From Leidyana gryllorum EB-2025a (lineage: Eukaryota > Protista > Apicomplexa): 14,291 nucleotides of DNA. A program made the translations under genes and the position numbers. How positions within the stretch are numbered: the first letter of the stretch is position 1; each line of letters opens with the position of its first letter. The stretch covers positions 1 through 14,291 of the forward strand of contig JBLWGC010000157.1 in NCBI GenBank assembly GCA_048772705.1. Reading direction: 5' to 3'. The notes below the pieces were generated by a model. It saw nothing but the letters and a program-made list of their open reading frames with translations. It did no database searches and was not told where the DNA came from. Below, piece by piece: positions 1-14,291 of the stretch.

Positions 1-7
1 TGATTTG

Positions 8-80
8 CACCGCCCGCGGGGCTCGAACCCGCGACTGCAAGATTAAGAGTCTTGCGCTCTACCGACTGAGCTAGGGCGGC
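8..80 (-). tRNA. tRNA-Lys(CTT)
   Basis: Minus strand GCCGCCCTAGCTCAGTCGGTAGAGCGCAAGA-CTCTTAA-TCTTGCAGTCGCGGGTTCGAGCCCCGCGGGCGGTG; complete 73-nt cloverleaf, no encoded CCA. Confidence 0.95.
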
Positions 81-387
81 AGGGAAGCAAGAACACAAAA
101 CCCGATAGCCTGACATGTGAAGTGACTTTGGTACTCACCGCATCGTTGGCGTGCCAGGCGGAAGTATAAGTTTCACACCATGTCGGAGGCGCGTGACCCC
201 CCCCCATCTTAGAGCCCAGCCTTTCCATTCTCTAGCTCTAACAGACAGGGAACGCTTGGAGTGGCGGGACAGAAACCGAGCTGATCAGTGGAGAGACCCG
301 TGTTGCAGGAGACCTCGGACCCTGTAGTCACAAGCCCAGAACTCTCGCACTGAGTTGCACTACTCCAGCGTCGGATATCATGAAGGA

Positions 388-430
388 AGCTGTTTGGGCT
401 GCAGGTATGATTCTTGCTCGCTTGGAAGAA
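388..430 (+). pseudogene. degenerate 5' fragment of tRNA-Pro
   Basis: AGCTGTTTGGGCTGCAGGTATGATTCTTG...TGGAAGAA aligns to the 5' part of the tRNA-Pro at 3831; T arm missing. Confidence 0.5.
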
Positions 431-441
431 CATTGCAACTG

Positions 442-514
442 GGTCCTGTAGCTCAGTCGGCAAAGCGTGTAGCTGTTCACCACAAAGTCGCAGTTTCGAA
501 GCGTAGCAGTATCG
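442..514 (+). pseudogene. degenerate tRNA, probably Asn(GTT)-derived
   Basis: GGTCCTGTAGCTCAGTCGGCAAAGCGTGTAG-CTGTTCA-CCACAAAGTCGCAGTTTCGAA; A-box and GTT anticodon retained, T and acceptor stems broken. Confidence 0.65.
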
Positions 515-591
515 GGAGCTGCGATATCCGACGCTCTCTTAGAGGTCGCAACTCTGTATTCAACTACCGGCAGGTGCCGCCCTACTGAGTT

Positions 592-664
592 TGGACGACC
601 TGGGTATCGATCCCAGTACCTCTCGCATGCAAAGCGAGCGCTCTACCATCTGAGCTAGCCGCCC
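592..664 (-). tRNA. tRNA-Ala(TGC)
   Basis: GGGCGGCTAGCTCAGATGGTAGAGCGCTCGC-TTTGCAT-GCGAGAGGTACTGGGATCGATACCCAGGTCGTCCA; G3:U70 pair and eukaryotic Ala-type ATCG T-loop. Confidence 0.95.
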
Positions 665-724
665 AGCCGCTCTACATGGAAAACCTATTGCATCCAGTGG
701 CTGACCGACTGCCGATACAACGCC

Positions 725-804
725 TGACAAGAGTGGGATTCGAACCCACGCCCTTTCGGACTGTGGCCTTAACACAGCGCCTTAGACCACTCGGCCTTCT
801 TGCC
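725..804 (-). tRNA. tRNA-Leu(AAG), U8-to-A variant
   Basis: GGCAAGAAGGCCGAGTGGTCTAAGGCGCTGTG-TTAAGGC-CACAG, long variable arm, GGTTCGAATCC; position 8 is A instead of the conserved T. Confidence 0.85.
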
Positions 805-929
805 GGAGTGTTGTTGGCTGGCCGCTCCACGCGTTTCCCGTCCCCGGAATCTCGAGAATGGAAAGACTCTCAGGTTGGAGGCGGGCAACGCAGGTCGGCG
901 TGCCGATTCAAATCCAGCACTTAAGTGTG

Positions 930-1001
930 CTCCGAGACCGGGAATCGAACCCGGGTCTTCCGCGTGACAGGCGGAAATACTAACCACTATACTATCTCGG
1001 A
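930..1001 (-). tRNA. tRNA-Asp(GTC)
   Basis: TCCGAGATAGTATAGTGGTTAGTATTTCCGC-CTGTCAC-GCGGAAGACCCGGGTTCGATTCCCGGTCTCGGAG; perfect stems. Confidence 0.96.
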
Positions 1002-1095
1002 CGCTCTGAACACGCCTGCCTCCGACCCCAAAAGTCCTTCCATTTTGAGATTTCAAGCACAGAAAACGCGTGGAGCGGCAAGCCAACAACATCCC

Positions 1096-1178
1096 GGCAA
1101 GATGGCCGAGTGCTCGAAGGCCCTGTGTGCAGGTCGCAGTCCGAACGGGCCCCGTGGGTTCGAATCCCAGTCTTGTCA
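1096..1178 (+). pseudogene. degenerate tRNA-Leu(CAG)
   Basis: Paralog of 725-804 with D-loop GG lost, U33 changed to G and a variable-arm insertion; anticodon reads CAG. Confidence 0.75.
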
Positions 1179-1238
1179 GCCATGGTATCGGCACTCCGTC
1201 AGCCACTGGATGAATTAGGTCTTCCATGTTGTACGCAT

Positions 1239-1313
1239 GGGCGGCTAGATCAGATGGTGGAGCGCTCGCTGTGCATGCGAGAGAGGTACTGGGATCGACA
1301 GCCAGGTCGTCCA
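1239..1313 (+). pseudogene. degenerate tRNA-Ala(TGC)
   Basis: Paralog of 592-664 with D-stem, U33 and T-stem lesions and an AG insertion. Confidence 0.8.
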
Positions 1314-1402
1314 AACTCCATGCAACTTTGGCTGCAGAGAAACGGCTGGCGCGTGGTCCAAAAATGTGAATGTTGTTATTTCAATCTAGTCGAAGAGCCG
1401 CG

Positions 1403-1475
1403 GCCTACGTGGCGCAATGGATAGCGCGTTGGACTTCTAATCCAAAGGTTGCGAGTTCGAGTCTCGCCGTAGGTA
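1403..1475 (+). tRNA. tRNA-Arg(TCT)
   Basis: GCCTACGTGGCGCAATGGATAGCGCGTTGGA-CTTCTAA-TCCAAAGGTTGCGAGTTCGAGTCTCGCCGTAGGTA; intact. Confidence 0.95.
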
Positions 1476-1539
1476 GCCAAATGCTCAGCACTTTACTTCG
1501 ATGATTTGGCTGACTAGCTGCCTTCGCTGAGACATGTTG

Positions 1540-1611
1540 TCCACTGTAGTCTGAGTGGCTAGGATATGCGGCTCTCACCCGCAAGCTCCGGGCTCAAGTC
1601 CGGCAGTGGAA
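1540..1611 (+). pseudogene. tRNA-Glu(CTC), degenerate
   Basis: Paralog of 4195-4267; anticodon loop CTCTCAC, T54 changed to C, 1-nt deletion in the T stem. Confidence 0.75.
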
Positions 1612-1699
1612 GTCAGTGGTTGAAGCCAGTGAAATACTTGAGCAAAGTGCCCAGCAATCTCCGTCAATAGTGTCTGATTCGTGATCTTCGGCTTGCATT

Positions 1700-1771
1700 G
1701 CCTTCTTAGCTTAGGGGCAGAGCATGTGCTTAGTAAGCGAAAGGTCGGCGGTTCGATTCCGGCAGAAGGCT
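1700..1771 (+). pseudogene. tRNA-Thr(AGT), degenerate
   Basis: GCCTTCTTAGCTTAGGGGCAGAGCA-TGTGC-TTAGTAA-GCGAA; anticodon-stem and T-stem mismatches relative to 2962-3032. Confidence 0.75.
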
Positions 1772-1832
1772 TGACTGCATCGACTGGGCACCTGCAAAGC
1801 TTAAGTCTCTCAAGCTCCACTCATCTTAGCCG

Positions 1833-1904
1833 AGCCTCTTAGCTCAGCCACCAGAGGGTAAGTCTCTTAGCCACAAAGTCGCAGACTGGAACCTGCCAGT
1901 ACCT
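1833..1904 (+). pseudogene. highly degenerate tRNA relic (same family as 442-514)
   Basis: TAGCTCAG...CCACAAAGTCGCAG...AACCTGCCAGTACC shared with 442-514 and 4459-4530. Confidence 0.5.
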
Positions 1905-1969
1905 GAGGCACCCACTAGCTCAACGCAGACTGCCGCCGAGTCTCGTTGTGCTGAGGCTCTCTCTCGAGT

Positions 1970-2040
1970 GCACTTGTGGTCCAAGGGTAGGATGCGAGCT
2001 TCCCATGCTCACAGCCCGGGTTCGAGTCCCGGCAGGTGCA
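1970..2040 (+). tRNA. tRNA-Gly(CCC)
   Basis: GCACTTGTGGTCCAAGGGTAGGATGCGAGC-TTCCCAT-GCTCACAGCCCGGGTTCGAGTCCCGGCAGGTGCA; 71 nt, one anticodon-stem mismatch. Confidence 0.88.
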
Positions 2041-2115
2041 GCCGATCGTACAGGCTTGACCATGGCTGCAACAATGTTTTCAACCGGGGCGAAGAGCAAT
2101 GCACTTTAGACTGCT

Positions 2116-2187
2116 TGTCCGAGCCAGGAATCGAGCCTGGGTTTGCACGGCCACAACGTGCTGTCCTAACCACTAGACGACTCGGAC
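2116..2187 (-). tRNA. tRNA-His(GTG), T54-to-C variant
   Basis: GTCCGAGTCGTCTAGTGGTTAGGACAGCACG-TTGTGGC-CGTGCAAACCCAGGCTCGATTCCTGGCTCGGACA. Confidence 0.88.
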
Positions 2188-2463
2188 AAATCTTTGAGCG
2201 AGGCTGTAGAGGTAGCGAAGCATCTATCAGGATGGGATGGAACAGGAGCGTCAGACGAACTGCGTTGCAAGAAGTCCACTCCTCAACTTCGGGTGGGACG
2301 GAATTTACTCGTGGAATATCTGATGCCACCACCACAGTTAGATACGTTACCATCTAAGCACCCCGGGCCGTGAGAGTACTTCGGGGCGGCACACCGCAGC
2401 CAGAACGACATCGGTGGTCGCAACGGAAGCCATTAACACTTTGGAACTCAGAAGGAAAGTAAT

Positions 2464-2547
2464 GCACAGATGCCCGAGTGGTCTAAGGGGCCAGACTCAA
2501 GTTCTGGTAGGCGCAAGTCTGCATGGGTTCGAATCCCATTCTGTGCA
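2464..2547 (+). tRNA. tRNA-Leu(CAA)
   Basis: GCACAGATGCCCGAGTGGTCTAAGGGGCCAGA-CTCAAGT-TCTGG, long variable arm, GGTTCGAATCC, TCTGTGCA. Confidence 0.95.
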
Positions 2548-2635
2548 ACGGCGATCATCCCAAAAAAAAGCTGGAAAAGGTCACAGTAGATTCGAATCTC
2601 CATTTGTATATTCGGTTGCATGCACCCAAGTATTC

Positions 2636-2705
2636 GGCTGTTGCTCTGCTGGTATAATCCTTCCTCAGAGTGGAAGGAGTCCTGGGTTCGATTCCAGAAC
2701 AGCCC
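2636..2705 (+). pseudogene. degenerate tRNA-Pro
   Basis: GGCTGTT...GGTTCGATTCC...AACAGCCC matches the Pro gene at 3831; D arm and anticodon mutated. Confidence 0.7.
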
Positions 2706-2841
2706 TCTTGGTCGTCGGTTGACCCGACGGGACAAGTTGCCCTCACAACCAACACAGCCACCTCGTTAGCCCACTTCGGCACTCAAGGCCATTAACATCT
2801 CAAGAATCGCATTTCGGCTCCCTCTTCCATGTTGCAGACTG

Positions 2842-2912
2842 AGCAGTGTAGCTCAGTGAAAAGTGTTGGGCTCATAATCCAAAGGTTCGTCGATCGAAAC
2901 GACGCACTGCTA
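2842..2912 (+). tRNA. initiator tRNA-Met(CAT), slightly degenerate
   Basis: A1:U72 pair, GGG-CTCATAA, initiator-type GATCGAAAC T-loop; D-loop GG lost. Confidence 0.75.
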
Positions 2913-2961
2913 AGTTTGCGCAGAAGGGGAACAGTTATAGAATAGATTGCCTCGCGAGCAA

Positions 2962-3032
2962 AGCCTTCTGCCGGAATCGAACCGGCGACCTTTCGCTTAC
3001 TAAGCGAATGCTCTGCCCCAAGCTAAGAAGGC
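2962..3032 (-). tRNA. tRNA-Thr(AGT)
   Basis: GCCTTCTTAGCTTGGGGCAGAGCATTCGC-TTAGTAA-GCGAAAGGTCGCCGGTTCGATTCCGGCAGAAGGCT; A14 missing. Confidence 0.82.
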
Positions 3033-3160
3033 AATGTTAACTGGACATCACGAATGAGTCCCTATTGACGGAAGCTACTGAAGCACATTGTTCCACCACT
3101 CAATACTTCCACTGCTCCACATACCGGCAAATAGGGTGTAACTAAGTTTAGAGCTTCCTT

Positions 3161-3233
3161 GCCGCCCTAGCTCAGTCGGTAGAGCGCAAGACTTTTAATC
3201 TTGCAGTCGCGGGTTCGAGCCCCGCGGGCGGTG
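3161..3233 (+). tRNA. tRNA-Lys(TTT)
   Basis: Identical to 8-80 except at the wobble base (loop CTTTTAA). Confidence 0.95.
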
Positions 3234-3293
3234 CAAATCAATGTCTCTGGGAGTAGGAATGGAACCGTTGCCTACAAGCACACTCTGCTGGAT

Positions 3294-3366
3294 TTCCACT
3301 GCCGGGACTTGAACCCGGATCGTGCGGGTGAAAGCCGCATATCCTAGCCACTTAGACTACAGTGGA
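3294..3366 (-). tRNA. tRNA-Glu(TTC)
   Basis: TCCACTGTAGTCTAAGTGGCTAGGATATGCGG-CTTTCAC-CCGCACGATCCGGGTTCAAGTCCCGGCAGTGGAA; intact. Confidence 0.95.
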
Positions 3367-3478
3367 CAAGTTCCCCAGGTGAGGTCAACAAGACGTGGTC
3401 CGTCGGGTCAACCTACAACAAAGGGGTTGCAGTAGAAAGTGGAGGGTCCCTCTACTAAGCTCTGCAACATTGTAAGGC

Positions 3479-3551
3479 GTCTTGTGAGCTCAGTCGGCAG
3501 AGCGTGTGGCTTTTGATGACAAGCTCGCAGGTCCGGAACCTAGCAAAACCG
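3479..3551 (+). pseudogene. degenerate tRNA relic (Asn-like family)
   Basis: AGCTCAGTCGGCAGAGCGTGTGGCT...TCGCAGGTCCGGAACCTAGCA resembles 442-514; stems broken. Confidence 0.55.
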
Positions 3552-3669
3552 GCTTCAGAGGCACCCTAGACATTGACTGCGGTGCTCTCCCAATGGCACT
3601 TGTGGTTCGCGACCCTTCAAAGATGACAACGATGGGTTTGAATCCGGCCACGTGCAGCCGTACGTACTT

Positions 3670-3742
3670 TGGACGACCTGGGCATCGATCCCAGTACCTC
3701 TCGCATGCTAAGCGAGCGCTCTACCATTTGAGCTAGTCGCCC
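3670..3742 (-). tRNA. tRNA-Ala(AGC)
   Basis: GGGCGACTAGCTCAAATGGTAGAGCGCTCGC-TTAGCAT-GCGAGAGGTACTGGGATCGATGCCCAGGTCGTCCA. Confidence 0.95.
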
Positions 3743-3830
3743 GTTATGCGGACCCCATCGCATTTGTTGGTTCTCAACATAGGATGACCACTTTTTAAAC
3801 TGTCTTCAGCGGGTTACACGAATGACAGGC

Positions 3831-3902
3831 GGCTGTTTGGTCTAGTGGTATGATTCTTCCGTCGGGTGGAAGAAGTCCTGGGTTCCATTCCCAAAACAGC
3901 CC
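3831..3902 (+). tRNA. tRNA-Pro(CGG), variant
   Basis: GGCTGTTTGGTCTAGTGGTATGATTCTTCC-GTCGGGT-GGAAGAAGTCCTGGGTTCCATTCCCAAAACAGCCC; non-canonical bases at positions 32 and 57. Confidence 0.8.
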
Positions 3903-3978
3903 GCTCTGTTGTATCTTGACCCAACCTGCCCGGCAGCATGGTTCTGGGTTCGGGTGATTCCTCGGAGAAAGTCGGAGG

Positions 3979-4051
3979 GGGAGTGTAGCGCAGTCGGTAG
4001 CGCGTAGGTCTCATAATCCTGAAGTCGAGAGTTCGATCCTCTCCACTCCCA
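3979..4051 (+). tRNA. elongator tRNA-Met(CAT)
   Basis: GGGAGTGTAGCGCAGTCGGTAGCGCGTAGGT-CTCATAA-TCCTGAAGTCGAGAGTTCGATCCTCTCCACTCCCA. Confidence 0.93.
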
Positions 4052-4091
4052 CGGTCGGAATCGAAACCGCGACAAACTCATCATGCTACCA

Positions 4092-4133
4092 TTTTGCAGT
4101 CGGGAATCGCACACAGGTTATCTCGATGGCAGC
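4092..4133 (-). pseudogene. 3' half of a degenerate tRNA-Gly(GCC)
   Basis: Matches the 3' half of the fuller relic at 14077-14147; the 5' half is replaced by other sequence here. Confidence 0.5.
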
Positions 4134-4194
4134 CGACATACCATGTTTTCCAAGACGGTACGGCTCTCGGCCGAAGCCCCAACTCAACCACTCG

Positions 4195-4267
4195 TCCACT
4201 GTAGTCTAAGTGGCTAGGATATGCGGCTTTCACCCGCACGATCCGGGTTCAAGTCCCGGGAGTGGAA
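4195..4267 (+). tRNA. tRNA-Glu(TTC)
   Basis: Same as 3294-3366 except for one acceptor-stem mismatch. Confidence 0.9.
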
Positions 4268-4343
4268 GTCATTGAACTACTCTAGCAAAGTGCTCCACTA
4301 ATCTCCGTCAATAGCGATTGTTTCGTCATCTCCGGCTTCCATT

Positions 4344-4415
4344 GCCTTCTTAGTTTAGGGGCGGAGCGTTCGCTTCGTAAGCGAGAAGTCGCCGGTTCGA
4401 TTCCGGCTGAAGGCT
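4344..4415 (+). tRNA. tRNA-Thr(CGT), variant
   Basis: GCCTTCTTAGTTTAGGGGCGGAGCGTTCGC-TTCGTAA-GCGAGAAGTCGCCGGTTCGATTCCGGCTGAAGGCT; a few stem changes. Confidence 0.8.
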
Positions 4416-4458
4416 CGACTGCATCGACTGGGCACCGGCAAGCTGCTCGCAAACTCCA

Positions 4459-4530
4459 ATAATCGTAGCTCAGCCATCAGAGGTAAGTCTCTCAGCCACG
4501 AAGTCGCAGGTTTAGAACCTGCCAGTACCT
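4459..4530 (+). pseudogene. highly degenerate tRNA relic
   Basis: Paralog of 1833-1904. Confidence 0.5.
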
Positions 4531-4545
4531 GAGGCACCCACAGGG

Positions 4546-4617
4546 GGCTGTTTGGTCTAGTTATATAATTCTTTCTTCGGCTGGAAGAAGTCCTGGGTTC
4601 AATGCCACGTCTCTCCA
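4546..4617 (+). pseudogene. degenerate tRNA-Pro(CGG)
   Basis: GGCTGTTTGGTCTAG...TTCGG...GGAAGAAGTCCTGGGTTCAAT; 3' acceptor strand lost. Confidence 0.7.
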
Positions 4618-4718
4618 AGGTCGGCTACTATACGCGACTCCCACTCGTACAATCCCGAATGAAGTCCAGACCAGCTGAGACAAAATCTGAGTTGCACCAG
4701 TTGTGAGGGCTGGAACTG

Positions 4719-4790
4719 CTCCGAGACCGGGAATCGAACCCGGGTCTTCCGCGTGACAGGCGGAAATACTGACCACTATACTATCTCGGA
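4719..4790 (-). tRNA. tRNA-Asp(GTC)
   Basis: One D-loop difference from 930-1001; the upstream flank is also homologous. Confidence 0.96.
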
Positions 4791-4911
4791 CGCTAGTAAA
4801 CACGCCGGCCTCCAACCCCAGAACTCCTCGCATTTTGAAATTGGAGAAGTTTTTTAATTGGCCACCCGATAGTGAACTTTGGGTGGTCAGCATAACACAC
4901 TATATATATTA

Positions 4912-5031
4912 GCTGTCTACCATACTACATCGAAAGAGCAGGATCCCATCCGAACTCCGCCGCGAAGCGATGTAAGGCCAGGTCAGTACTGGGCTGGGGG
5001 ACCGCCCGGGAACACCAAGGAGTTGACAGCA
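4912..5031 (+). rRNA. 5S rRNA
   Basis: About 120 nt; GCTGTC/GACAGC terminal helix, CCATAC, GATCCCATCCGAACTCCG, AGTACT-GG..GGGGACC..CCGGGAA motifs; followed by TTTT. Confidence 0.93.
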
Positions 5032-5035
5032 TTTT
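5032..5035 (+). terminator. Pol III oligo-dT terminator of 5S
   Basis: TTTT directly after the 5S 3' end. Confidence 0.6.
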
Positions 5036-5311
5036 GTTCAAGATTAAATTGGCACCCGATAGTTAATGAGATGTATGATGAGACCCACCAATATAACAGT
5101 AGAGTGACACACAGTGTTGTCATACACAGTCACTGATATACTTTCACATTCACATTGAGTTGGGTGGTTAGTGGGTTAAGAGTAAATACCATGGGGATAA
5201 CTGAAAGTGAGGGGGAGGGTTGGTTGACGACGACCAGTTGGGGAAAGAAAAAATAAGGCGCTGTCCGCGCAAAGTCAAGTTTTGGCACCCGATAGTGATT
5301 AATATAAGATA

Positions 5312-5675
5312 CATTGAACATCACAGTAAGCCTCAGCAGATCGTAAGACAAAGCTTACTCTCATGCTTACAGCACCTGGATGCGTCCCAATCGTCTTTTG
5401 GGGATGCAAAGCTCCCGATCAATATTAATGTTTATCCACTTAAAGCTTTCGTCGCCGACTGTGGAATGACCTCAATCGACCAATTATACAGTGATGCCTC
5501 GATCAAGAGTACTAGGCGTTGATGTTCAGCTAGGATTCTGACTTAGAGGCGTTCAGTCATTATCCTACAAGCGTAGCTTTGCAGCACTGGCCTTTCGACC
5601 AACTGCGTTACCAGAGGCTTGAGCCAACGGTTCCTCTCGTACTAAGTTGGCTTACTGTCACAATGCCGCCTAATA

Positions 5676-5729
<54 letters not shown>

Positions 5730-5771
5730 ATTAGCGGGTGAACAATCCGACATTTTGAGACTTCTGCGTCT

Positions 5772-5809
<38 letters not shown>

Positions 5810-5832
5810 AACGTCGCTATGAACGCTTGGCT

Positions 5833-5867
<35 letters not shown>

Positions 5868-6230
5868 TCACCTCTAGCCAGAACCTTTCTGGACTTAAAG
5901 GATCGATAGGCCATGCTTTCGCAGTTCGTATTCGCACTGGAAATCAGAATCAAGCTGACTTTTCCCCTTTCAGTCTACGAGAGATTTCTGTTCTCTCTGA
6001 GTCAACCTTAGGGCATCTGCGTTGCAGTTTAGCAGATGTGCCGCCCCAGCCAAACTCCCCATCTGAATATGTCCTCTGATACGATCGGTAAGAGAACCTT
6101 AAATCTGGAACACGTAAGAAAACGTGATTCGTTGTGACAGAGTAAGTAGAGCGACAGTGGAGGTCGTGGTATTTCACTGTCGCCAAAGCTCCCACGTATG
6201 CTACACCCCCCAAGTCACTCCACAAAGTCA

Positions 6231-6268
<38 letters not shown>

Positions 6269-6275
6269 TATTTTG

Positions 6276-6310
<35 letters not shown>

Positions 6311-6365
6311 GGCGGATGGGGACAGTAGGAATCTCGTTGATCCATTCATGCGCGTCACTAATTAA

Positions 6366-6427
<62 letters not shown>

Positions 6428-6444
6428 GGCGAATTTCATCGCAA

Positions 6445-6477
<33 letters not shown>

Positions 6478-7647
6478 CGTAAAAAGCGTTGCCGCTTGTC
6501 GCAATGCTTTGTTTTAATTAAACAGTCAGATTCCTCTTGTCCGTACCAGTTCTGAGTTAGCCGGTTAATGCCAACAGGATAGCCGAAGCTCCTAGCGTAG
6601 GCCACCGCTCGTTGCAACTCCCAGAGCGAGTCACCCCACTCCAGAAAAAGCGAGAACGATGAACTGTCACTAGGCCCTGAAAGCTCGGCCCTCAGAGCCA
6701 ATCCTTTTTCCAAAGGTACAGATCTAATTTGCCGACTTCCCTCATCCGCCTTATTCTATCGACCAGAGGCTGCGAACCTAGGAGACCTGATGCGGTTTAG
6801 GGTACGGCTAGAAAGTGGAGTAAATATCCCTTGGGGTTTCAAAGGCCAATAGAAGCGCACCGGATTTCCAACAGGTGTAAGAAACTATGCCAACTTTTCA
6901 TCCTTTTCTCCAGACAAGCCGATTCAAAGGAGTGGTGTTGTCAAAGAGCAAAGATAACGCTCCCCAGGGCTTCTCCTGGCAACCCAAGTTCAGTTGTGTT
7001 ACCACAACCCCACCAACTAGTAAAGGAATTTGGGCCTTTTTCCCTTTCAGGTCAAGAGGCGAAGCCTCACTCTGAAGGAGTAAGCTTTTCCTTTAGGGCC
7101 GACTAACCCGAGGACAATTGCTGTTCTCCCGGAACCCTTATCCACTTCGGTCATCAAAGTTCTCATTTGATTAATTGCTACTACCACCAAGATCTGCACT
7201 AGAGGCTGCTCCAGCTAGTTTCACAACTAAGCCTTCTCAGCAACCCCCACGCCCTCCTACACGTCAATGCTTATTTCATTGACGGTCTGGTATCGGCCGC
7301 CCGCTTGAGCGCTATCCATTTTCAGGGCTGGTCCATTCGGCAGGTGAGTTATTACACACTCCTTAGCGGATTTCAACTTCCATGACCACCGCCCTGCTGT
7401 TTCAATGAACCAACACCTTTTATGGTGTCTGATCAGCGAGTGTTGAGCGCCTTAACCAAACGTTAGGAGCATCCCTCATCGCCAGTTCTGCTTACCAAAA
7501 CTGGCCCACTAAGAAGTATCATTCATCTACCGAGCTAACTGAATTAGCAAGGTAGCAAACCCATTTAAAGTTTGAGAATAGGTCGAGGGCGGGATGCCCC
7601 CGAGGCCTCTAATCATTCGCTTTACCGGATCTAACTGATCATTAACT

Positions 7648-7701
<54 letters not shown>

Positions 7702-8168
7702 AGTCTTTCGCCCCTATGCCCAAGTTTGACGAACGATTTGCACGTCAGTATCGCTACGAGCTTCCACCAGGGTTTCCCCTGGCTTCACCCAACTCAGGTA
7801 TAGGTCACCATCTTTCGGGTCTAAACGAAAATGCTCAGGCTCGAACTTCAAGAGTCGGCTGCTGTTGCATTGTAATTCACAGCTTTTGCTTTCACTACGC
7901 GTCTGGGTTTGACACCCTTACACTCGCACTTTCGTTTAACTCCTTGGTCCGTGTTTCAAGACGGGTCGTCTGTACATGCCACTCTCGACAACTTACAATG
8001 GCGTACCACACTTCTCGATGTTAAGAGCTTTGTCATAACCGAAGCGATAACAAGTCGTAACATACGGAAGTGATGTCGAGTAATGTAATGAGAGAAATCT
8101 CTCAAACATTGGGTCACGGACAGCCGCTTCCCCCTCAGCGATTTCAGGTATTTTAACTCTCCTTTCGA

Positions 8169-8201
<33 letters not shown>

Positions 8202-8538
8202 TGCTATCGATCTCTCACCGTTATCTAGCCGTGGATGGAGGTTACCACCCATTTTGCGCTCTACTCCCAAAGAGCGTGACTCATTAGATTACAGCTGTAC
8301 TTGAGAATGGCTGGAATAAGAACAGGGCTGTCACCTTCTCTGGCGTGCCTTTCCAGGCATCTTCTTCCCAGTTTCTCAATAGCTGCAACCTCGATGCACA
8401 ACTCCGTCAGAAACGGATTAACATCGCGGGCTTTTCCCACTTCGTTCGCCACTACTACGGGAATCCCAGTTGGTTTCTTTTCCTCCGCTTAATTATATGC
8501 TTAAATTCAGCGGGTAGCCTTGCTTGAGCTCGGATCAT
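5312..8538 (-). rRNA. 28S (LSU) rRNA, apparently full length; ends approximate
   Basis: 5' ACCCGCTGAATTTAAGCATAT; universal LSU motifs including GGGATAACTGGCTTGTGGCAGCCAAGCGTTCATAGCGACG, GTGAGCTGGGTTTAGACCGTCGTGAGACAGG and the sarcin-ricin loop AGTACGAGAGGAAC; 3' ACGATCTGCTGAG. Confidence 0.97.
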
Positions 8539-8668
8539 GATTTGAGAAGCCTACTGTAATTACCTCAACATTTCACTGTATGAGTTCTTACAGGTAGCAT
8601 CATTTAGCCAGTGACGGAAAGACACTGTATGTCATCCATTCAATCGAAATTGATTGGAGAAATCTATA
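8539..8668 (-). other. ITS2 (~130 nt)
   Basis: Spacer between 5.8S and 28S. Confidence 0.8.
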
Positions 8669-8823
8669 CGATACCGAGCCAAACATACTTCAGGCCGAGG
8701 CCAGAAGTACCTTTGCGTTCAGAGATCTGGTGAATCACGAAATTTCGCAAGTCATACTGCTTATCGCGGTTTGCTGCGTCCTTCCTCGGTGTGAGAGTCG
8801 AGTCATCCATCGCTGAGAGTTTT
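8669..8823 (-). rRNA. 5.8S rRNA
   Basis: AACTCTCAGCGATGGATGACTCG...GAAGGACGCAGCAAACCGCGATAAG...TGAACGCA; position between SSU and LSU. Confidence 0.92.
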
Positions 8824-8892
8824 TAATTCTCATTAATAATGATTTAGTCATGTTAATTCATTTAGTGCTTAGGTTGGTTGTTGTTTAACAGG
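8824..8892 (-). other. ITS1 (~70 nt, AT-rich)
   Basis: Spacer between the 18S end (GGATCATT) and 5.8S. Confidence 0.8.
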
Positions 8893-9044
8893 AATGATCC
8901 ATCCGCAGGTTCACCTACGGATACCGTGTTACGACTTCTTCATCCTCTAGATGATAAGGCTCACAACATTTCCTCACGAAGAGCGATGTAGAACAAAGCA
9001 GCTACGTAAGTCCATGTAATTTGCCGGATCATCCAATCGGTTGA

Positions 9045-9079
<35 letters not shown>

Positions 9080-9431
9080 ATCAGCACAAGGTGATGACTT
9101 GTCCTTACTAGGAATTCCTCGTTCATGACCCATAATTGCAAAGGTCAATCCCTATCACGACGGAGTTTCACAAGATTTCCCCCTTCGGACGAAGTAGGGT
9201 AGAGCTCGCTGACTCCGTCATTGTAGCGCACGTGCAGCCCAGGCCATCTAAGGGCATCACAGACCTGTTATAGGCTCGAACTTCCTTGTGATAGTCTCAC
9301 AAAGTCCCTCTAAGAAGCCAATCGCTTACAGAAGTAAACGAAGGCTAGTTAGTAGGTCGAGGTCTCGTCCGTTATCGGAATTAACCAGACAAGTCACCTC
9401 ACCGACTAAGAACGGCCATGCACCACCACCC
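8893..9431 (-). rRNA. 18S rRNA, 3' ~540 nt only; truncated by the element
   Basis: Runs from GGGTGGTGGTGCATGGCCGTTCTTAG through GTACACACCGCCCGTC to GTAGGTGAACCTGCGGATGGATCATT; homology stops abruptly at 9431. Confidence 0.96.
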
Positions 9432-9746
9432 TAGTGATACTTGCGGAACGGTTCAAAAGGTGGGTTACGGACGAGTTATTTCCGCGAGTACGTTTTTTGA
9501 GTATCGCAAAAGGGCGGTTACGTCCGGGCCGAAAGTATCTGTCCTTATGCGACAGTAGGCCGTAAAGGGGGGATATGTTGTGTTACATGTAAAGATTATG
9601 TGCTGTGAGCTCGTCTCAATGGTCGATCTGCTCCGGTAGACGGCTGATTAACGCGTGTTGTGCTATATCTTCATGCGCTATGGTACTATGGTAAGTTATT
9701 GGTTAATGTGGTATGGAAAAAGTAAGTTACCAGTCTGTCTATCTGA
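9432..9746 (+). repeat. left terminal inverted repeat (315 bp)
   Basis: Reverse complement of 11955-12270; by eye they differ by one substitution and one homopolymer indel (T6 vs A7). Confidence 0.97.
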
Positions 9747-9853
9747 CTGTCAATGGTCAAGCACGTTAACCAGCACGAAACCAGAACGAAACCAGACTGT
9801 CTCCTCTAATACTAATCGACGACCATCAACCTTCAACCTTGCGTATAGAAACA

Positions 9854-11962
9854 ATGTCCATGACGAATTCTACCCAAGTTAACACTACTGTACCCACCAG
9901 CCTCAATACTACCACTGTACCCACCTCGCTCAGTACCACCCGCCGCCTCACCCAAGCCACCCTGTCGGTGAACGCCAAAGCGCGTCGTTCCGACTCATCG
10001 ATGAGCCAAAGTTGCTCTTCCGACTCCGCCCTCGGCGCCCCTGCAACCCCGACCGCTTCTGTCACAGCCCCCCACCACCAGCTCCTCTGCGCCCTTCCCA
10101 CCGCGAGCTTCCGGCCACAAAGACGGATGCAGGGAGTCTTTGCTGACTGGTTCGCTAAGCAGCCCATCGACCTGTCACTCATTCCAGTGCCACAACTGAT
10201 GAGTGCGGTCGATGACTTCTACAGGCGGCTGTACGATTCCCTACCCGTTGACCCCGCTCGCCCCCCATACTACAGTCTGCAGAGCTGGCTGCAGTTCCAA
10301 GGTTCTCTTCCTCCCGCCCCAAGCGCCCCCCACTACGACCCGGACTGGCTCGCTTTTCTGGCTGCTGCATCGAACCACTTTGAATGTTCGGTGGCCAATC
10401 TCACCGATCGAGATGCAGCGGCCGGATTATGCATGACCGGTCCGTACGAGCCTGTCCCTCCTCCTCCTTGTCTCCGCTGCCGTGGCCCGACCGCTCCTTC
10501 TTCTCGTCCCAGCACCGCCAACACCGCCGCTCGCCCAGGGAAGCTGCTGGCCCACCTTCAGCGGGCAATGGGCGGGCACAACCTATTTGCTGTGTTGGCT
10601 GCGTTTAGTCAGGGACCGCGTCGGGCGTCACTGGTCCAATGGGGGAAGATCTCTGCGCCGTCTGACACATTCGTTGGCATTCGGCCAGACTACCGCGCCC
10701 CCCTGGAGACCGCCCTTTACCTGTCCATCCTCTACCGTCTCGAAGCGATTCGGACTCTGGACTTCTCAAGCACAACCCTCCCACCCTGCAGCCCACTGGA
10801 GTTTACTTATTGCGAAGACGGCGGCATTGCCCCCGAGGTTTTCGCTAGTGTAGTCGAGTCTGATGAAGAACACTGGAAGCAGATTCTGGTGTGCTTGAAG
10901 ACTACGGGGTACACGGGAATAGCGAAGATCAATGCCGCCGTCAGCTCGATACTCCGGAGGCTGCACGATGAGCCTCAGATCGTTGGGCTTTTCAAAGGGT
11001 TCGGGGGAGGGAAGGCTGATGCCCAGGGAGTTAGAGTTCGAGTAGCTCCTCTTCAAACCCGCCCCTTCGTGAAGGTGGAAGAAGTTCGTCAGCCCGCGAA
11101 GCTACTGGCCCGGTTGTGCCGTACAGTGAAGGACTCCGCCCTCGTCGCGGCCTGTCTGCTGCTGTACCTCACCGGTTTGCGTGGCGAGGAACTTCGACCG
11201 ATCACATGGGCCGCGTTTGCTGAGGGGGGGGTAACTATTTCTTTGAGTAAGACCGGCGGAACCAGGACCGTTCAGCTACCTGCGGGTAGCGAAACGCTCT
11301 TCCGGCGACTCCTACTCGGCTCTGCTAAGGTTCAACCCGACCCTTCTCACCGCATGCTTCCTGACCAATTTGGCTACAAGCGGCGGGCTCCCCCTTCCCA
11401 ATCGACCCAGAGTCCCACAGTTCTTTTTGCCAGCTCGAAGAAGCGTGCAAGGCTGCTGCTGACGGACCTCTTTGGCGACAAAGGCGACCGTAAGATCTCG
11501 ATGGGACTCCATTGTTGGAGACGAACCTTCATCAGATCGGTGACTGCCTGTGTCGCCAAAGCGTCCACACTGGTGGCTCACAAGCGCCTTGCAACCACGC
11601 AACGCTTCTACGCCGGCAGCGCTGGCCATCTCGAGGCAGCTGAAGAGTTGTGGACCAACTTGGTTGAAGCATGGCGGTCGATGGGGCTGACCAAGGGAGA
11701 AGGCGGGCTGAGCCATAGAGCCTTGGCGGACCTGGATTGCTCCGAGCCGCCAGCAACCTGGGTGAAGTTTAGAGAGGATTGTGGAGGGGGATTGGACACA
11801 GCGGGAGGAGATTCGGACTCCGACGAGGATGACGAAGACGACCGCGACTCAGACCTCGCATCCGACTCCGAGTCGGAATCTCCCATCGTTACACCACCAC
11901 GCTCGAGGAAGAGATGTTTGGGGGCAGAGCCGACAGAAGACAAAAGGCGGAGGATCAGATAG
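9854..11962 (+). CDS. tyrosine recombinase (phage-integrase fold), ~702 aa from the first ATG
   Basis: Box I LYLTGLRGEEL (R codon 11180), SKTGGTRTV (K 11249), GLHCWRRTF (HxxR 11510-11521), LVAHKRLATTQRFY (H 11579, Y 11609). ORF is open from 9839; first ATG at 9854 in ACAATG context. Acidic tail followed by basic RSRKR and KRRRIR. Confidence 0.92.
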   Translation: MSMTNSTQVNTTVPTSLNTTTVPTSLSTTRRLTQATLSVNAKARRSDSSMSQSCSSDSALGAPATPTASVTAPHHQLLCALPTASFRPQRRMQGVFADWFAKQPIDLSLIPVPQLMSAVDDFYRRLYDSLPVDPARPPYYSLQSWLQFQGSLPPAPSAPHYDPDWLAFLAAASNHFECSVANLTDRDAAAGLCMTGPYEPVPPPPCLRCRGPTAPSSRPSTANTAARPGKLLAHLQRAMGGHNLFAVLAAFSQGPRRASLVQWGKISAPSDTFVGIRPDYRAPLETALYLSILYRLEAIRTLDFSSTTLPPCSPLEFTYCEDGGIAPEVFASVVESDEEHWKQILVCLKTTGYTGIAKINAAVSSILRRLHDEPQIVGLFKGFGGGKADAQGVRVRVAPLQTRPFVKVEEVRQPAKLLARLCRTVKDSALVAACLLLYLTGLRGEELRPITWAAFAEGGVTISLSKTGGTRTVQLPAGSETLFRRLLLGSAKVQPDPSHRMLPDQFGYKRRAPPSQSTQSPTVLFASSKKRARLLLTDLFGDKGDRKISMGLHCWRRTFIRSVTACVAKASTLVAHKRLATTQRFYAGSAGHLEAAEELWTNLVEAWRSMGLTKGEGGLSHRALADLDCSEPPATWVKFREDCGGGLDTAGGDSDSDEDDEDDRDSDLASDSESESPIVTPPRSRKRCLGAEPTEDKRRRIR

Positions 11963-12270
11963 ACAGACTGGTAACTTACTTTTTCCATACCACATTAACG
12001 AATAACTTACCATAGTACCATAGCGCATGAAGATATAGCACAACACGCGTTAATCAGCCGTCTACCGGAGCAGATCGACCATTGAGACGAGCTCACAGCA
12101 CATAATCTTTACATGTAACACAACATATCCCCCCTTTACGGCCTACTGTCGCATAAGGACAGATACTTTCGGCCCGGACGTAACCGCCCTTTTGCGATAC
12201 TCAAAAAAACGTACTCGCGGAAATAACTCGTCCGTAACCCACCTTTTGAACCGTTCCGCAAGTATCACTA
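11955..12270 (-). repeat. right terminal inverted repeat (316 bp)
   Basis: Reverse complement of 9432-9746; contains the ORF stop codon TAG (11960-11962). Confidence 0.97.
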
Positions 12271-12447
12271 TACTTACCGGGACGGAATTTACTCGTGGAA
12301 TATCTGATGCCACCACTACAGTCAGATACGTTACCATCTAAGCACCCCGGCCCGTGAGAGTACTTCGGGGCGGCACACCGCAGTTAGAACGACATCGGCG
12401 GTCGCAACGGAAGCCATTAACACTTTGGAACTCTGAAGGAAAGTAAT

Positions 12448-12531
12448 GCACAGATGCCCGAGTGGTCTAAGGGGCCAGACTCAAGTTCTGGTAGGCGCAA
12501 GTCTGCATGGGTTCGAATCCCATTCTGTGCA
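12448..12531 (+). tRNA. tRNA-Leu(CAA)
   Basis: Identical to 2464-2547. Confidence 0.95.
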
Positions 12532-12618
12532 ACGGCGATTATCCCAAAAAAAGCTGGAAAAGGCCACAGTAGATTCGAATCTGCATTTGTATATCTGGTT
12601 GCATGCACCCAAGTATTC

Positions 12619-12687
12619 GGCTGTTGCTCTGCTGGTATAATCCTTCCTCAGAGTGGAAGGAGTCCTGGGTTCGATTCCAGAACACCC
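12619..12687 (+). pseudogene. degenerate tRNA-Pro
   Basis: Copy of 2636-2705. Confidence 0.7.
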
Positions 12688-12828
12688 TATTGGTCGTCGT
12701 TTGACTTGACCGGACATGTTGCCCTCAGAACCAACACAGCCACCTCGTTAGCCCGCTTCGGTAGGGCAGTCAGGGCAACTAACATCTCGAGGATCACATT
12801 TCGGCTACCTCTTCCATGTTGCAGACTG

Positions 12829-12900
12829 AGCAGTGTAGCTCAGTGGAAGAGTGTTAGGCTTATAACGCAAAGGTCCGTCGATCGAAACGACGCACTGCTA
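12829..12900 (+). pseudogene. initiator tRNA-Met-derived gene with anticodon mutated to TAT
   Basis: A1:U72 and GATCGAAAC retained; anticodon arm TTAGG-CTTATAA-CGCAA is mispaired. Confidence 0.75.
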
Positions 12901-12948
12901 AGTGTGCGCAGAAGGGAACAGTTGCAGGATAGATTGGCTCGTGAGCCA

Positions 12949-13019
12949 AGCCTTCTGCCCGAATCGAACCGGCGACCTTTCACTTACTAAGCGAATGCTC
13001 TGCCCCAAGCTAAGAAGGC
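12949..13019 (-). pseudogene. tRNA-Thr(AGT), degenerate
   Basis: Copy of 2962-3032 with extra anticodon-stem and T-stem mismatches. Confidence 0.72.
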
Positions 13020-13147
13020 AATGTTAAGTGGACATCACGAATGAGTCCCTATTGACGGAAGTTACTGAAGCACATTGTTCCACCACTCAATACTTCCACG
13101 GATCCACCCACCGGCAAATAGGGTGTAACTAAGTTTAGAGCTTCCTT

Positions 13148-13220
13148 GCCGCCCTAGCTCAGTCGGTAGAGCGCAAGACTTTTAATCTTGCAGTCGCGGG
13201 TTCGAGCCCCGCGGGCGGTG
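13148..13220 (+). tRNA. tRNA-Lys(TTT)
   Basis: Identical to 3161-3233. Confidence 0.95.
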
Positions 13221-13277
13221 CAAATCAATGTCTCTGGGAGTAGTGGAACCGTTGCCTACAAGCACACTCTGCTGGAT

Positions 13278-13350
13278 TTCCACTGCCGGGACATGAACCC
13301 GGATCGTGCGGGTGAGAGTCGCATATCCTAGCCACTTAGACTACAGTGGA
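13278..13350 (-). tRNA. tRNA-Glu(CTC), variant or possible pseudogene
   Basis: Positional copy of Glu(TTC) 3294-3366 with anticodon CTC, an A31:C39 mismatch and A58 changed to T. Confidence 0.72.
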
Positions 13351-13462
13351 CAACTTCCCCAGTTGAGGTCAACAAGACGTGGTCCGTCGGGTCAACCTAC
13401 AACAAAGGGGTTGCAGTAGAAAGTGGAGGGTCCCTCTACTAAGCTCTGCAACATTGTAAGGC

Positions 13463-13535
13463 GTCTTGTGAGCTCAGTCGGCAGAGCGTGTGGCTTTTGA
13501 TGACAAGCTCGCAGGTCCGAAACCTAGCAAAACCG
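13463..13535 (+). pseudogene. degenerate tRNA relic
   Basis: Copy of 3479-3551. Confidence 0.55.
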
Positions 13536-13653
13536 GCTTCAAAGGCACCCTAGACATTGACTGCGGTGCTCTCCCAATGGCACTTGTGGTTCGCGACCCT
13601 TCAAAGATGACAACGATGGGTTTGAATCCGGCCACCTGCAGCCGTACGTACTT

Positions 13654-13726
13654 TGGACGACCTGGGCATCGATCCCAGTACCTCTCGCATGCTAAGCGAG
13701 CGCTCTACCATTTGAGCTAGTCGCCC
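13654..13726 (-). tRNA. tRNA-Ala(AGC)
   Basis: Identical to 3670-3742. Confidence 0.95.
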
Positions 13727-13814
13727 GTTCTGCGGACCCCATCGCATTTGTTGGTTCTCAACATAGGATGACCACTTTTTAAACTGTCTTCAGCGGGTTA
13801 CACGAATGACAGGC

Positions 13815-13886
13815 GGCTGTTTGGTCTAGTGGTATGATTCTTCCGTCGGGTGGAAGAAGTCCTGGGTTCCATTCCCAAAACAGCCC
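13815..13886 (+). tRNA. tRNA-Pro(CGG), variant
   Basis: Identical to 3831-3902. Confidence 0.8.
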
Positions 13887-13962
13887 GCTTTGTTGTATCT
13901 TGACCCGACCTGCCTGGCAGCATGGTTCTGGGTTCGGGTGATTCCTCGGAGAAACTCGGAGG

Positions 13963-14035
13963 GGGAGTGTAGCGCAGTCGGTAGCGCGTAGGTCTCATAA
14001 TCCTGAAGTCGAGAGTTCGATCCTCTCCACTCCCA
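13963..14035 (+). tRNA. elongator tRNA-Met(CAT)
   Basis: Identical to 3979-4051. Confidence 0.93.
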
Positions 14036-14076
14036 CGGTCGGAATCGAAACCGCCGACAAACTCATCATGCTATCA

Positions 14077-14147
14077 TTTTTCAGTCGGGAATCGCACACA
14101 GGTTATCTCGATGGCAGCGAGCGACTCTTCCACTAGACCACAGATGC
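14077..14147 (-). pseudogene. degenerate tRNA-Gly(GCC)
   Basis: GCATCTGTGGTCTAGTGGAAGAGTCGCTCG-CTGCCAT-CGAGATAACCTGTGTGCGATTCCCGA; Gly-type 5' half and GCC anticodon, T arm and acceptor decayed. Confidence 0.65.
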
Positions 14148-14213
14148 AGAACACGATCTTGTAAATCTTGTACGTGGTGACAGCCATTCCTCTTAAGCCT
14201 ATCGATGCAACAA

Positions 14214-14285
14214 AGCCTTCTGCCGGAATCGAACCGGCGACTTCTCGCTTACGAAGCGAACGCTCTGCCCCTAAGCTAAGAAGAA
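14214..14285 (-). tRNA. tRNA-Thr(CGT); first two bases changed from GC to TT
   Basis: TTCTTCTTAGCTTAGGGGCAGAGCGTTCGC-TTCGTAA-GCGAGAAGTCGCCGGTTCGATTCCGGCAGAAGGCT. Confidence 0.78.
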
Positions 14286-14291
14286 AACTTC

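Follow-up and report, generated by a model that had tools for sequence, protein, structure and literature searches.

A 2,839-bp element, bounded by long terminal inverted repeats (TIRs) and carrying a single predicted tyrosine recombinase (YR) gene, was found at positions 9432-12270 of contig JBLWGC010000157.1 from the Leidyana gryllorum EB-2025a assembly (GCA_048772705.1). The window, meaning the whole stretch of 14,291 nt that was analyzed, contained 30 tRNA calls (ARAGORN), 5S, large subunit (LSU) and 5.8S rRNA genes and a partial 18S gene, which agreed with the rDNA/tRNA setting described in an initial annotation of the same sequence; the rDNA was eukaryotic, with 18S and 5S features that look gregarine-like, and the host is likely a gregarine. 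The sequence suggested that this is likely an autonomous, recently moved DNA mobile element, known here from one copy, and that it probably favors multicopy RNA-gene loci, as judged from its two junctions. Both the architecture and the recent date proposed initially were retained, with near-identical TIRs, an open coding frame and an rDNA unit broken without decay.

The element encodes a predicted tyrosine recombinase

The interior of about 2.2 kb held one open reading frame (ORF; 9854-11962, + strand), which was uninterrupted as first annotated and encoded a protein of 702 amino acids named P0001. The ORF started 107 nt inward of the left TIR and ended within the right TIR. Between the TIRs the coding frame contained one stop, located 5' of the ATG, and the other five frames contained 14-28 stops each. 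P0001 consisted, in order, of a Thr/Ser- and Pro-rich N-terminus, a possible core-binding region, the YR catalytic domain (11090-11650, + strand; R443, E446, K466, H553, R556, H576 and Y586) and an acidic tail, at whose end two basic clusters may form a nuclear localization signal.

P0001 matched the integrase family PHROG 1 (E 4e-11), PHROG 216 (E 4e-8) and Pfam Phage_integrase (PF00589; E 1.5e-4, under the curated cut-off), and its matches to integrase clusters in the ESM Atlas scored 0.97-0.98, the top one (0.98) being a phage-integrase cluster. R443, E446, K466, H553, R556 and H576 aligned to both catalytic domains of P0004, a Pfam-confirmed bacterial integrase, and the second His/Trp position of P0001 was His, which is phage-like. 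The predicted nucleophile is likely Y586, located at H576+10 compared with H+9 in P0004, whose Tyr column was filled by F585 of P0001. The full catalytic set claimed initially was thus upheld in the alignment for R, K, HxxR and H, while the Tyr was one residue off relative to P0004. P0001 is a predicted tyrosine recombinase, the domain being carried by its C-terminal half.

For the N-terminal half, no family match was obtained in Pfam or PHROG, and the ESM Atlas gave only weak leads to integrase SAM-like domains (0.89). The AlphaFold models of P0001 reached pLDDT values of 38 and 32, and the fold search was uninformative. No reverse transcriptase (RT), RNase H, gag or DDE family was matched by the ORF in Pfam or NCBIfam, as the initial annotation had stated, and no second mobility enzyme was detected inside the element. 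The Flp family had no Pfam match, and P0001 had no sequence match in PDB. The Crypton domains DUF3504 and GCR1_C (the latter typical of CryptonF) likewise had no Pfam match to P0001 at permissive thresholds (E up to 1 for the whole ORF and up to 10 for its halves).

P0001 belongs to a barely sampled family

A HMMER search of 1.84 billion protein representatives (E up to 0.001) returned five matches to P0001, named P0002 to P0006. P0002 and P0005 were rejected as repetitive proteins matched over fewer than 30 residues, and P0004 and P0006 were set aside as generic integrases. P0004 (ENA; 552 aa) carries two integrase catalytic domains in tandem. The one lineage-level homologue was P0003, a singleton of 278 aa on a 2.6-kb Logan contig, which shared 28% identity with P0001 over 221 residues, an alignment that also took in sequence upstream of the catalytic core. 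Since P0003 retained R, E, K, HxxR and H, P0001 is not a one-off. In a word-indexed protein search no relative was found among 7,996 scored candidates for residues 225-625 of P0001 or among 1,097 candidates for the short YR domain, and a two-sequence profile recovered P0003 alone. No related locus was present in viral contigs (IMG/VR), prokaryote genomes or phages, and the best matches in the plasmid collection had E values of 4-9 only. These results suggested a divergent and barely sampled YR family that appears phage/Xer-like rather than Crypton-like. The proposal of an undescribed family was supported by the sequence comparisons within the collections searched, with a single relative at 28% identity in the whole set of representatives; Repbase or Dfam may hold a matching family.

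The phage-like character of P0001, including His at the second His/Trp position, would also suit a minimal remnant of a Polinton-like virus (PLV) or virophage with long TIRs and tyrosine-recombinase-driven integration. PLVs and virophages carry TIRs and phage-type YRs (PMC4642659, PMC10120064) and reside, as this element does, in protist genomes. PLVs and virophages, however, measure 15-30 kb (PMC4642659), against 2.8 kb here, and the element contained no capsid, packaging, ATPase or polymerase gene and had no sequence relative in IMG/VR, searched with three queries. We regard a viral remnant as improbable.

The TIRs are nearly identical and have structured tips

By repeat comparison, the left TIR was placed at 9432-9746 (+ strand, 315 nt) and the right TIR at 11955-12270 (- strand, 316 nt), the latter holding the final 8 nt of the ORF with the stop codon. 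The pair was 99.4% identical, with a single substitution and a one-base indel within a run of T as the only differences, so the two or so differences noted initially were counted exactly. No terminal direct repeat was found at the element tips, and TA was the terminal dinucleotide at both ends.

The outer part of the TIR was internally structured (9436-9539, mirrored at 12162-12266). It contained an inverted pair of 16 nt (9436-9451 and 9524-9539, 13/16 matching) and a direct pair of 16 nt (9454-9469 and 9507-9522, 14/16 matching), which together occupied the outer ~110 bp. The score of the direct pair was reached in 0 of 500 shuffles, that of the inverted pair in 3 of 500 and both together in none of 500; folding of the full TIR was no better than that of shuffles. 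The sub-repeats are likely candidate binding sites of the recombinase, as binding at multiple sites would need such repeats.

Repeats of this length also recall DIRS1-like retrotransposons, for which inverted terminal repeats of up to 316 bp, integration without target site duplication (TSD) and a right extension of 9-75 bp have been described (PMC3266345). A derivative of such an element that had lost gag and pol is nevertheless very improbable here. DIRS1 is defined by RT together with internal complementary regions (PMC3266345), and in our element no RT, RNase H or methyltransferase, no HSTR motif and no DIRS YR among the homologue matches was found. The internal complementary region was also missing, the best interior match of the tip/flank 14-mers having 3-4 mismatches, which already largely refutes this origin.

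The left tip truncates an 18S gene that shows no decay

The left tip abutted the 3' third of an 18S rRNA gene (8892-9431, - strand), whose 5' two thirds were missing and which was cut exactly at the TIR tip. The remainder of the truncated rDNA unit lay at 4856-8891 (- strand; 5.8S at 8669-8821 and LSU at 5309-8537); the 5S gene of the unit (4912-5031) was encoded on the + strand, opposite to the others. For comparison, 62 related rDNA loci were retrieved with the host-flank pattern. The closest of them were 97-98% identical in 18S and shared the ~6.3-kb unit and the opposite-strand 5S of the window. Alignments of the related loci to the window ended exactly at 9431, the base next to the TIR tip, and the 18S stretch at the junction was uninterrupted in all 66 related copies from the 62 loci, none of which contained this TIR or YR. 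At conserved positions the truncated unit had private changes at 0/369 sites in the small subunit (SSU) gene and 1/2,022 in the LSU gene, within the range of its relatives; the break is therefore recent, or else an assembly join. In the native 18S a TA lies one base away from the junction; a TA duplication at this junction would need one base more.

Across the window (4856-9431) and the related loci L044, L014 and L031, the lineage has rDNA units of ~6.3 kb whose spacer holds 5S on the opposite strand and whose internal transcribed spacers (ITS1 and ITS2) are very short. A spacer motif of 13-15 nt recurred near 4858, 5049 and 5282 and in relatives.

A recombinase gene lying between long, near-perfect inverted repeats within a rearranged tRNA/rDNA array could alternatively be a host-fixed or plasmid-derived inversion module, comparable to half of a yeast 2-micron circle, that flips or amplifies these arrays instead of transposing. 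The lack of a Flp match and of any copy in the 62 related rDNA loci argues against such a module, and repeats that stop exactly at the 18S coding break are hard to explain without an insertion. It was judged only a little less improbable than the viral remnant.

The right tip joins a tRNA cluster

The right tip was joined not to the rest of the 18S gene but to another locus, a tRNA cluster. Since the flanks belong to separate loci, no empty site could be reconstructed and no target duplication was found, and the clean insertion pictured initially did not hold. As each tip was precisely joined to a different target, at least two element-host junction events are needed.

The cluster copy at the right tip (copy B, 12279-14118, + strand) was 95.8% identical to copy A (2295-4133). 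The 8 nt between the tip and copy B (12271-12278, + strand) had no counterpart at the paralogous site (near 2287-2294), and they are possibly either carried-over coupling sequence or native variation. The six bases 2291-2296 of the paralogous "empty" site, which lie at a distance of four bases from the corresponding junction, were identical to 9426-9431 of the 18S gene read outward from the left tip, an identity noticed post hoc.

A non-tRNA segment of ~170 nt at this place (12270-12446 and 2295-2462) was 97% conserved between the paralogues. In copy B its start, at the right junction, resembles the 5' end of U1 snRNA, but a U1 identity was not supported: no Rfam U1 was found, and the fold of the segment had a z of -1.1 relative to shuffles. 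The segment was likewise rejected as an old TIR, with a score at the background median.

The regions 1-4842 and 12279-14291 of the window formed a very dense tRNA cluster of duplicated and inverted blocks, with decayed tRNA-like copies (for example at 449-502, 1840-1893 and 3486-3539) and with anticodons that differed between tRNA paralogues, which looks like birth-and-death evolution. The tRNA-rich flanks had 50-58% GC. For one gregarine genome, 231 tRNAs and a GC content of 53.8% are given (PMC9250747); the flanks fit that genome, but the match is not diagnostic.

Both flanks contain words resembling the TIR tip

By word matching, stretches of 10-14 nt that resembled TIR positions 32-60 were found in both flanks. 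In the 18S flank they lay at 9363-9385 (+ strand) and were like TIR 9463-9484; in the right flank they lay at 12283-12300 (+ strand), also present in the paralogue at 2299-2316, and were like TIR 9471-9491. When both 80-nt flanks were compared with the TIR tip, 6 of 6,670 window pairs equaled the observed sharing when each pair was scored at its best setting out of 18. Shuffled TIR tips matched the counts of both flanks in 0, 2 and 1 of 1,000 cases, and interior 60-mers in 0 of 108. The joint p for word sharing was ~0.001, calculated post hoc. Target mimicry, in which insertion sites would resemble TIR words, is offered as a lead from the sequence. Lox-like symmetric junctions were considered and rejected: the best 13-bp arm match was 8/13 at both junctions, a value seen at 27% of 1,315 random positions.

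Discussion

Combining these results, we consider it fairly probable that the element leaves as a circle once the recombinase has bound the repeats in its tips, and that this circle then enters RNA-gene loci similar to the enzyme's binding sites, without duplicating the target. In this mechanism the recombinase would bind both TIRs at the motifs repeated within their outer ~110 bp, pair the two tips, and cut and rejoin them through a phosphotyrosine intermediate with release of a circle, which would then integrate without target duplication where sites mimic the recombinase's own binding words. A short overlap that was carried along, as in Tn916-type elements with their coupling overlap, would account for the 8 additional bases at the right tip. 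A circle-mediated model has been proposed for Cryptons (PMC3212892). The junction events could have been combined in vivo, either by recombination between two copies or by an intramolecular jump that deleted the remaining rDNA unit; alternatively, the assembler could have joined them by running across a repeated element. Rearrangement in vivo and assembly join alike imply a mobile or multi-copy element.

Several observations weigh against this mechanism. The catalytic Tyr of P0001 is displaced by one residue, and the homologue P0003 aligns no Tyr there. Taken singly, each flank gave p ~0.01-0.04, in a test devised after the matches had been noticed, and the enrichment weakened when the whole TIR served as reference (12 of 300 shuffles). 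Similarity to the extreme tip was restricted to the right flank (within the top 3.2% of 22,602 30-mers), the left being at background, and the junctions lacked lox-like symmetry. TIR words had 0 matches in the metagenome, viral and prokaryote collections. Finally, the TA tips, together with the TA one base from the 18S junction, would fit a TA-targeting DDE transposase acting in trans with loss of one base.

This last point leads to the alternative that the element is a deletion derivative of a Tc1/mariner element like Tec1/Tec2 or Sardine/Thon, which lost its DDE gene and was moved in trans at TA, with the YR as passenger or resolvase. To our knowledge, TIR-like target words are not expected of Tc1/mariner elements, which counts against such a derivative. 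Tec1/Tec2, Sardine and Thon are ciliate Tc1/mariner elements with a DDE transposase, further ORFs and a YR, and Sardine and Thon have internally palindromic TIRs of 425 bp and ~700 bp (PMC3464196). The present element resembles them in its long TIRs with an internal palindrome, its YR gene and its TA ends, and differs in having the YR alone, without an IS630/Tc1-type DDE. The YR ORF takes up nearly all of the 2.2-kb interior and overlaps the right TIR, and no DDE remnant was found in this interior. Insertion at TA would leave one extra base at the 18S junction, and the flanks of the element belong to separate loci. We consider this derivation unlikely, though less so than the viral, inversion-module and DIRS1-like origins.

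Among known systems, the closest architecture is that of Tec3 from Euplotes crassus, reportedly described by Jacobs et al. in 2003. Tec3 reportedly measures ~4.5 kb and has long inverted terminal repeats (~1.2 kb) around a single, degenerate YR ORF, without a DDE gene, and is said to be excised by the ciliate internal eliminated sequence (IES) machinery. Both would be eukaryotic DNA elements with long inverted repeats around one YR ORF; compared by architecture, ours differs from Tec3 as described in its length of 2.8 kb, 315-bp TIRs, intact ORF and RNA-gene targets. Tec3 is reported to encode a YR and to have 20-30 copies (PMC3212892, PMC3464196), and it is listed as a YR DNA element of ciliates (PMC4157794). 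No Tec3-like protein was among the matches of the homologue search.

The Dada enzyme is a DDE transposase and so unrelated to P0001; the likeness to Dada lies in insertion into multicopy RNA genes, suggested here by two junctions. Dada inserts in such genes by recognizing primary sequence (PMC8869645). With Cryptons the element shares a YR as sole mobility enzyme, a circle-mediated model and the absence of a conventional TSD. Cryptons (CryptonF/S/A/I) have no TIRs and either 4-6-bp terminal direct repeats or no terminal repeats (PMC3212892, PMC13465315). The element differs from them in its TIRs of 315/316 bp, in having no direct repeat and in the absence of a match to DUF3504 or GCR1_C. By analogy the element would work like a Crypton or Tec3, and by the definition tested it is not a Crypton.

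In the open-access literature searched, no YR-only TIR element was found for a gregarine or other apicomplexan, and the extracts of PMC12130899, PMC6431247 and PMC6681497 contained nothing on this design. A survey of 64 apicomplexan genomes, two gregarines included, reported no class II elements; it was based on a DDE transposase search and on BLASTn for Cryptons (PMC9141347), an approach that would likely miss a protein as divergent as P0001. A survey of 290 genomes reported only Merlins that were probable contaminants (PMC8101967).

A broader interpretation, which we put forward tentatively and consider doubtful, is that the element represents a one-gene class of DNA transposons of eukaryotes, whose YR is of phage type and acts on long TIRs, and that it is active and autonomous, selects rRNA and tRNA genes by matching its binding words, reshuffles these arrays and, if in a gregarine, would be the first apicomplexan DNA transposon. 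The published recombinase-only eukaryotic transposons, Cryptons, are without TIRs, and the one precedent with such repeats, Tec3, reportedly has a degenerate gene. Because the gene is intact, the ends are readable and two target junctions are available, movement of a TIR-bounded element by a YR becomes directly testable. A compact eukaryotic integrase that prefers rDNA would also be of interest to genome engineers. If the host is a gregarine, the conclusion that Apicomplexa are devoid of DNA transposons would fall.

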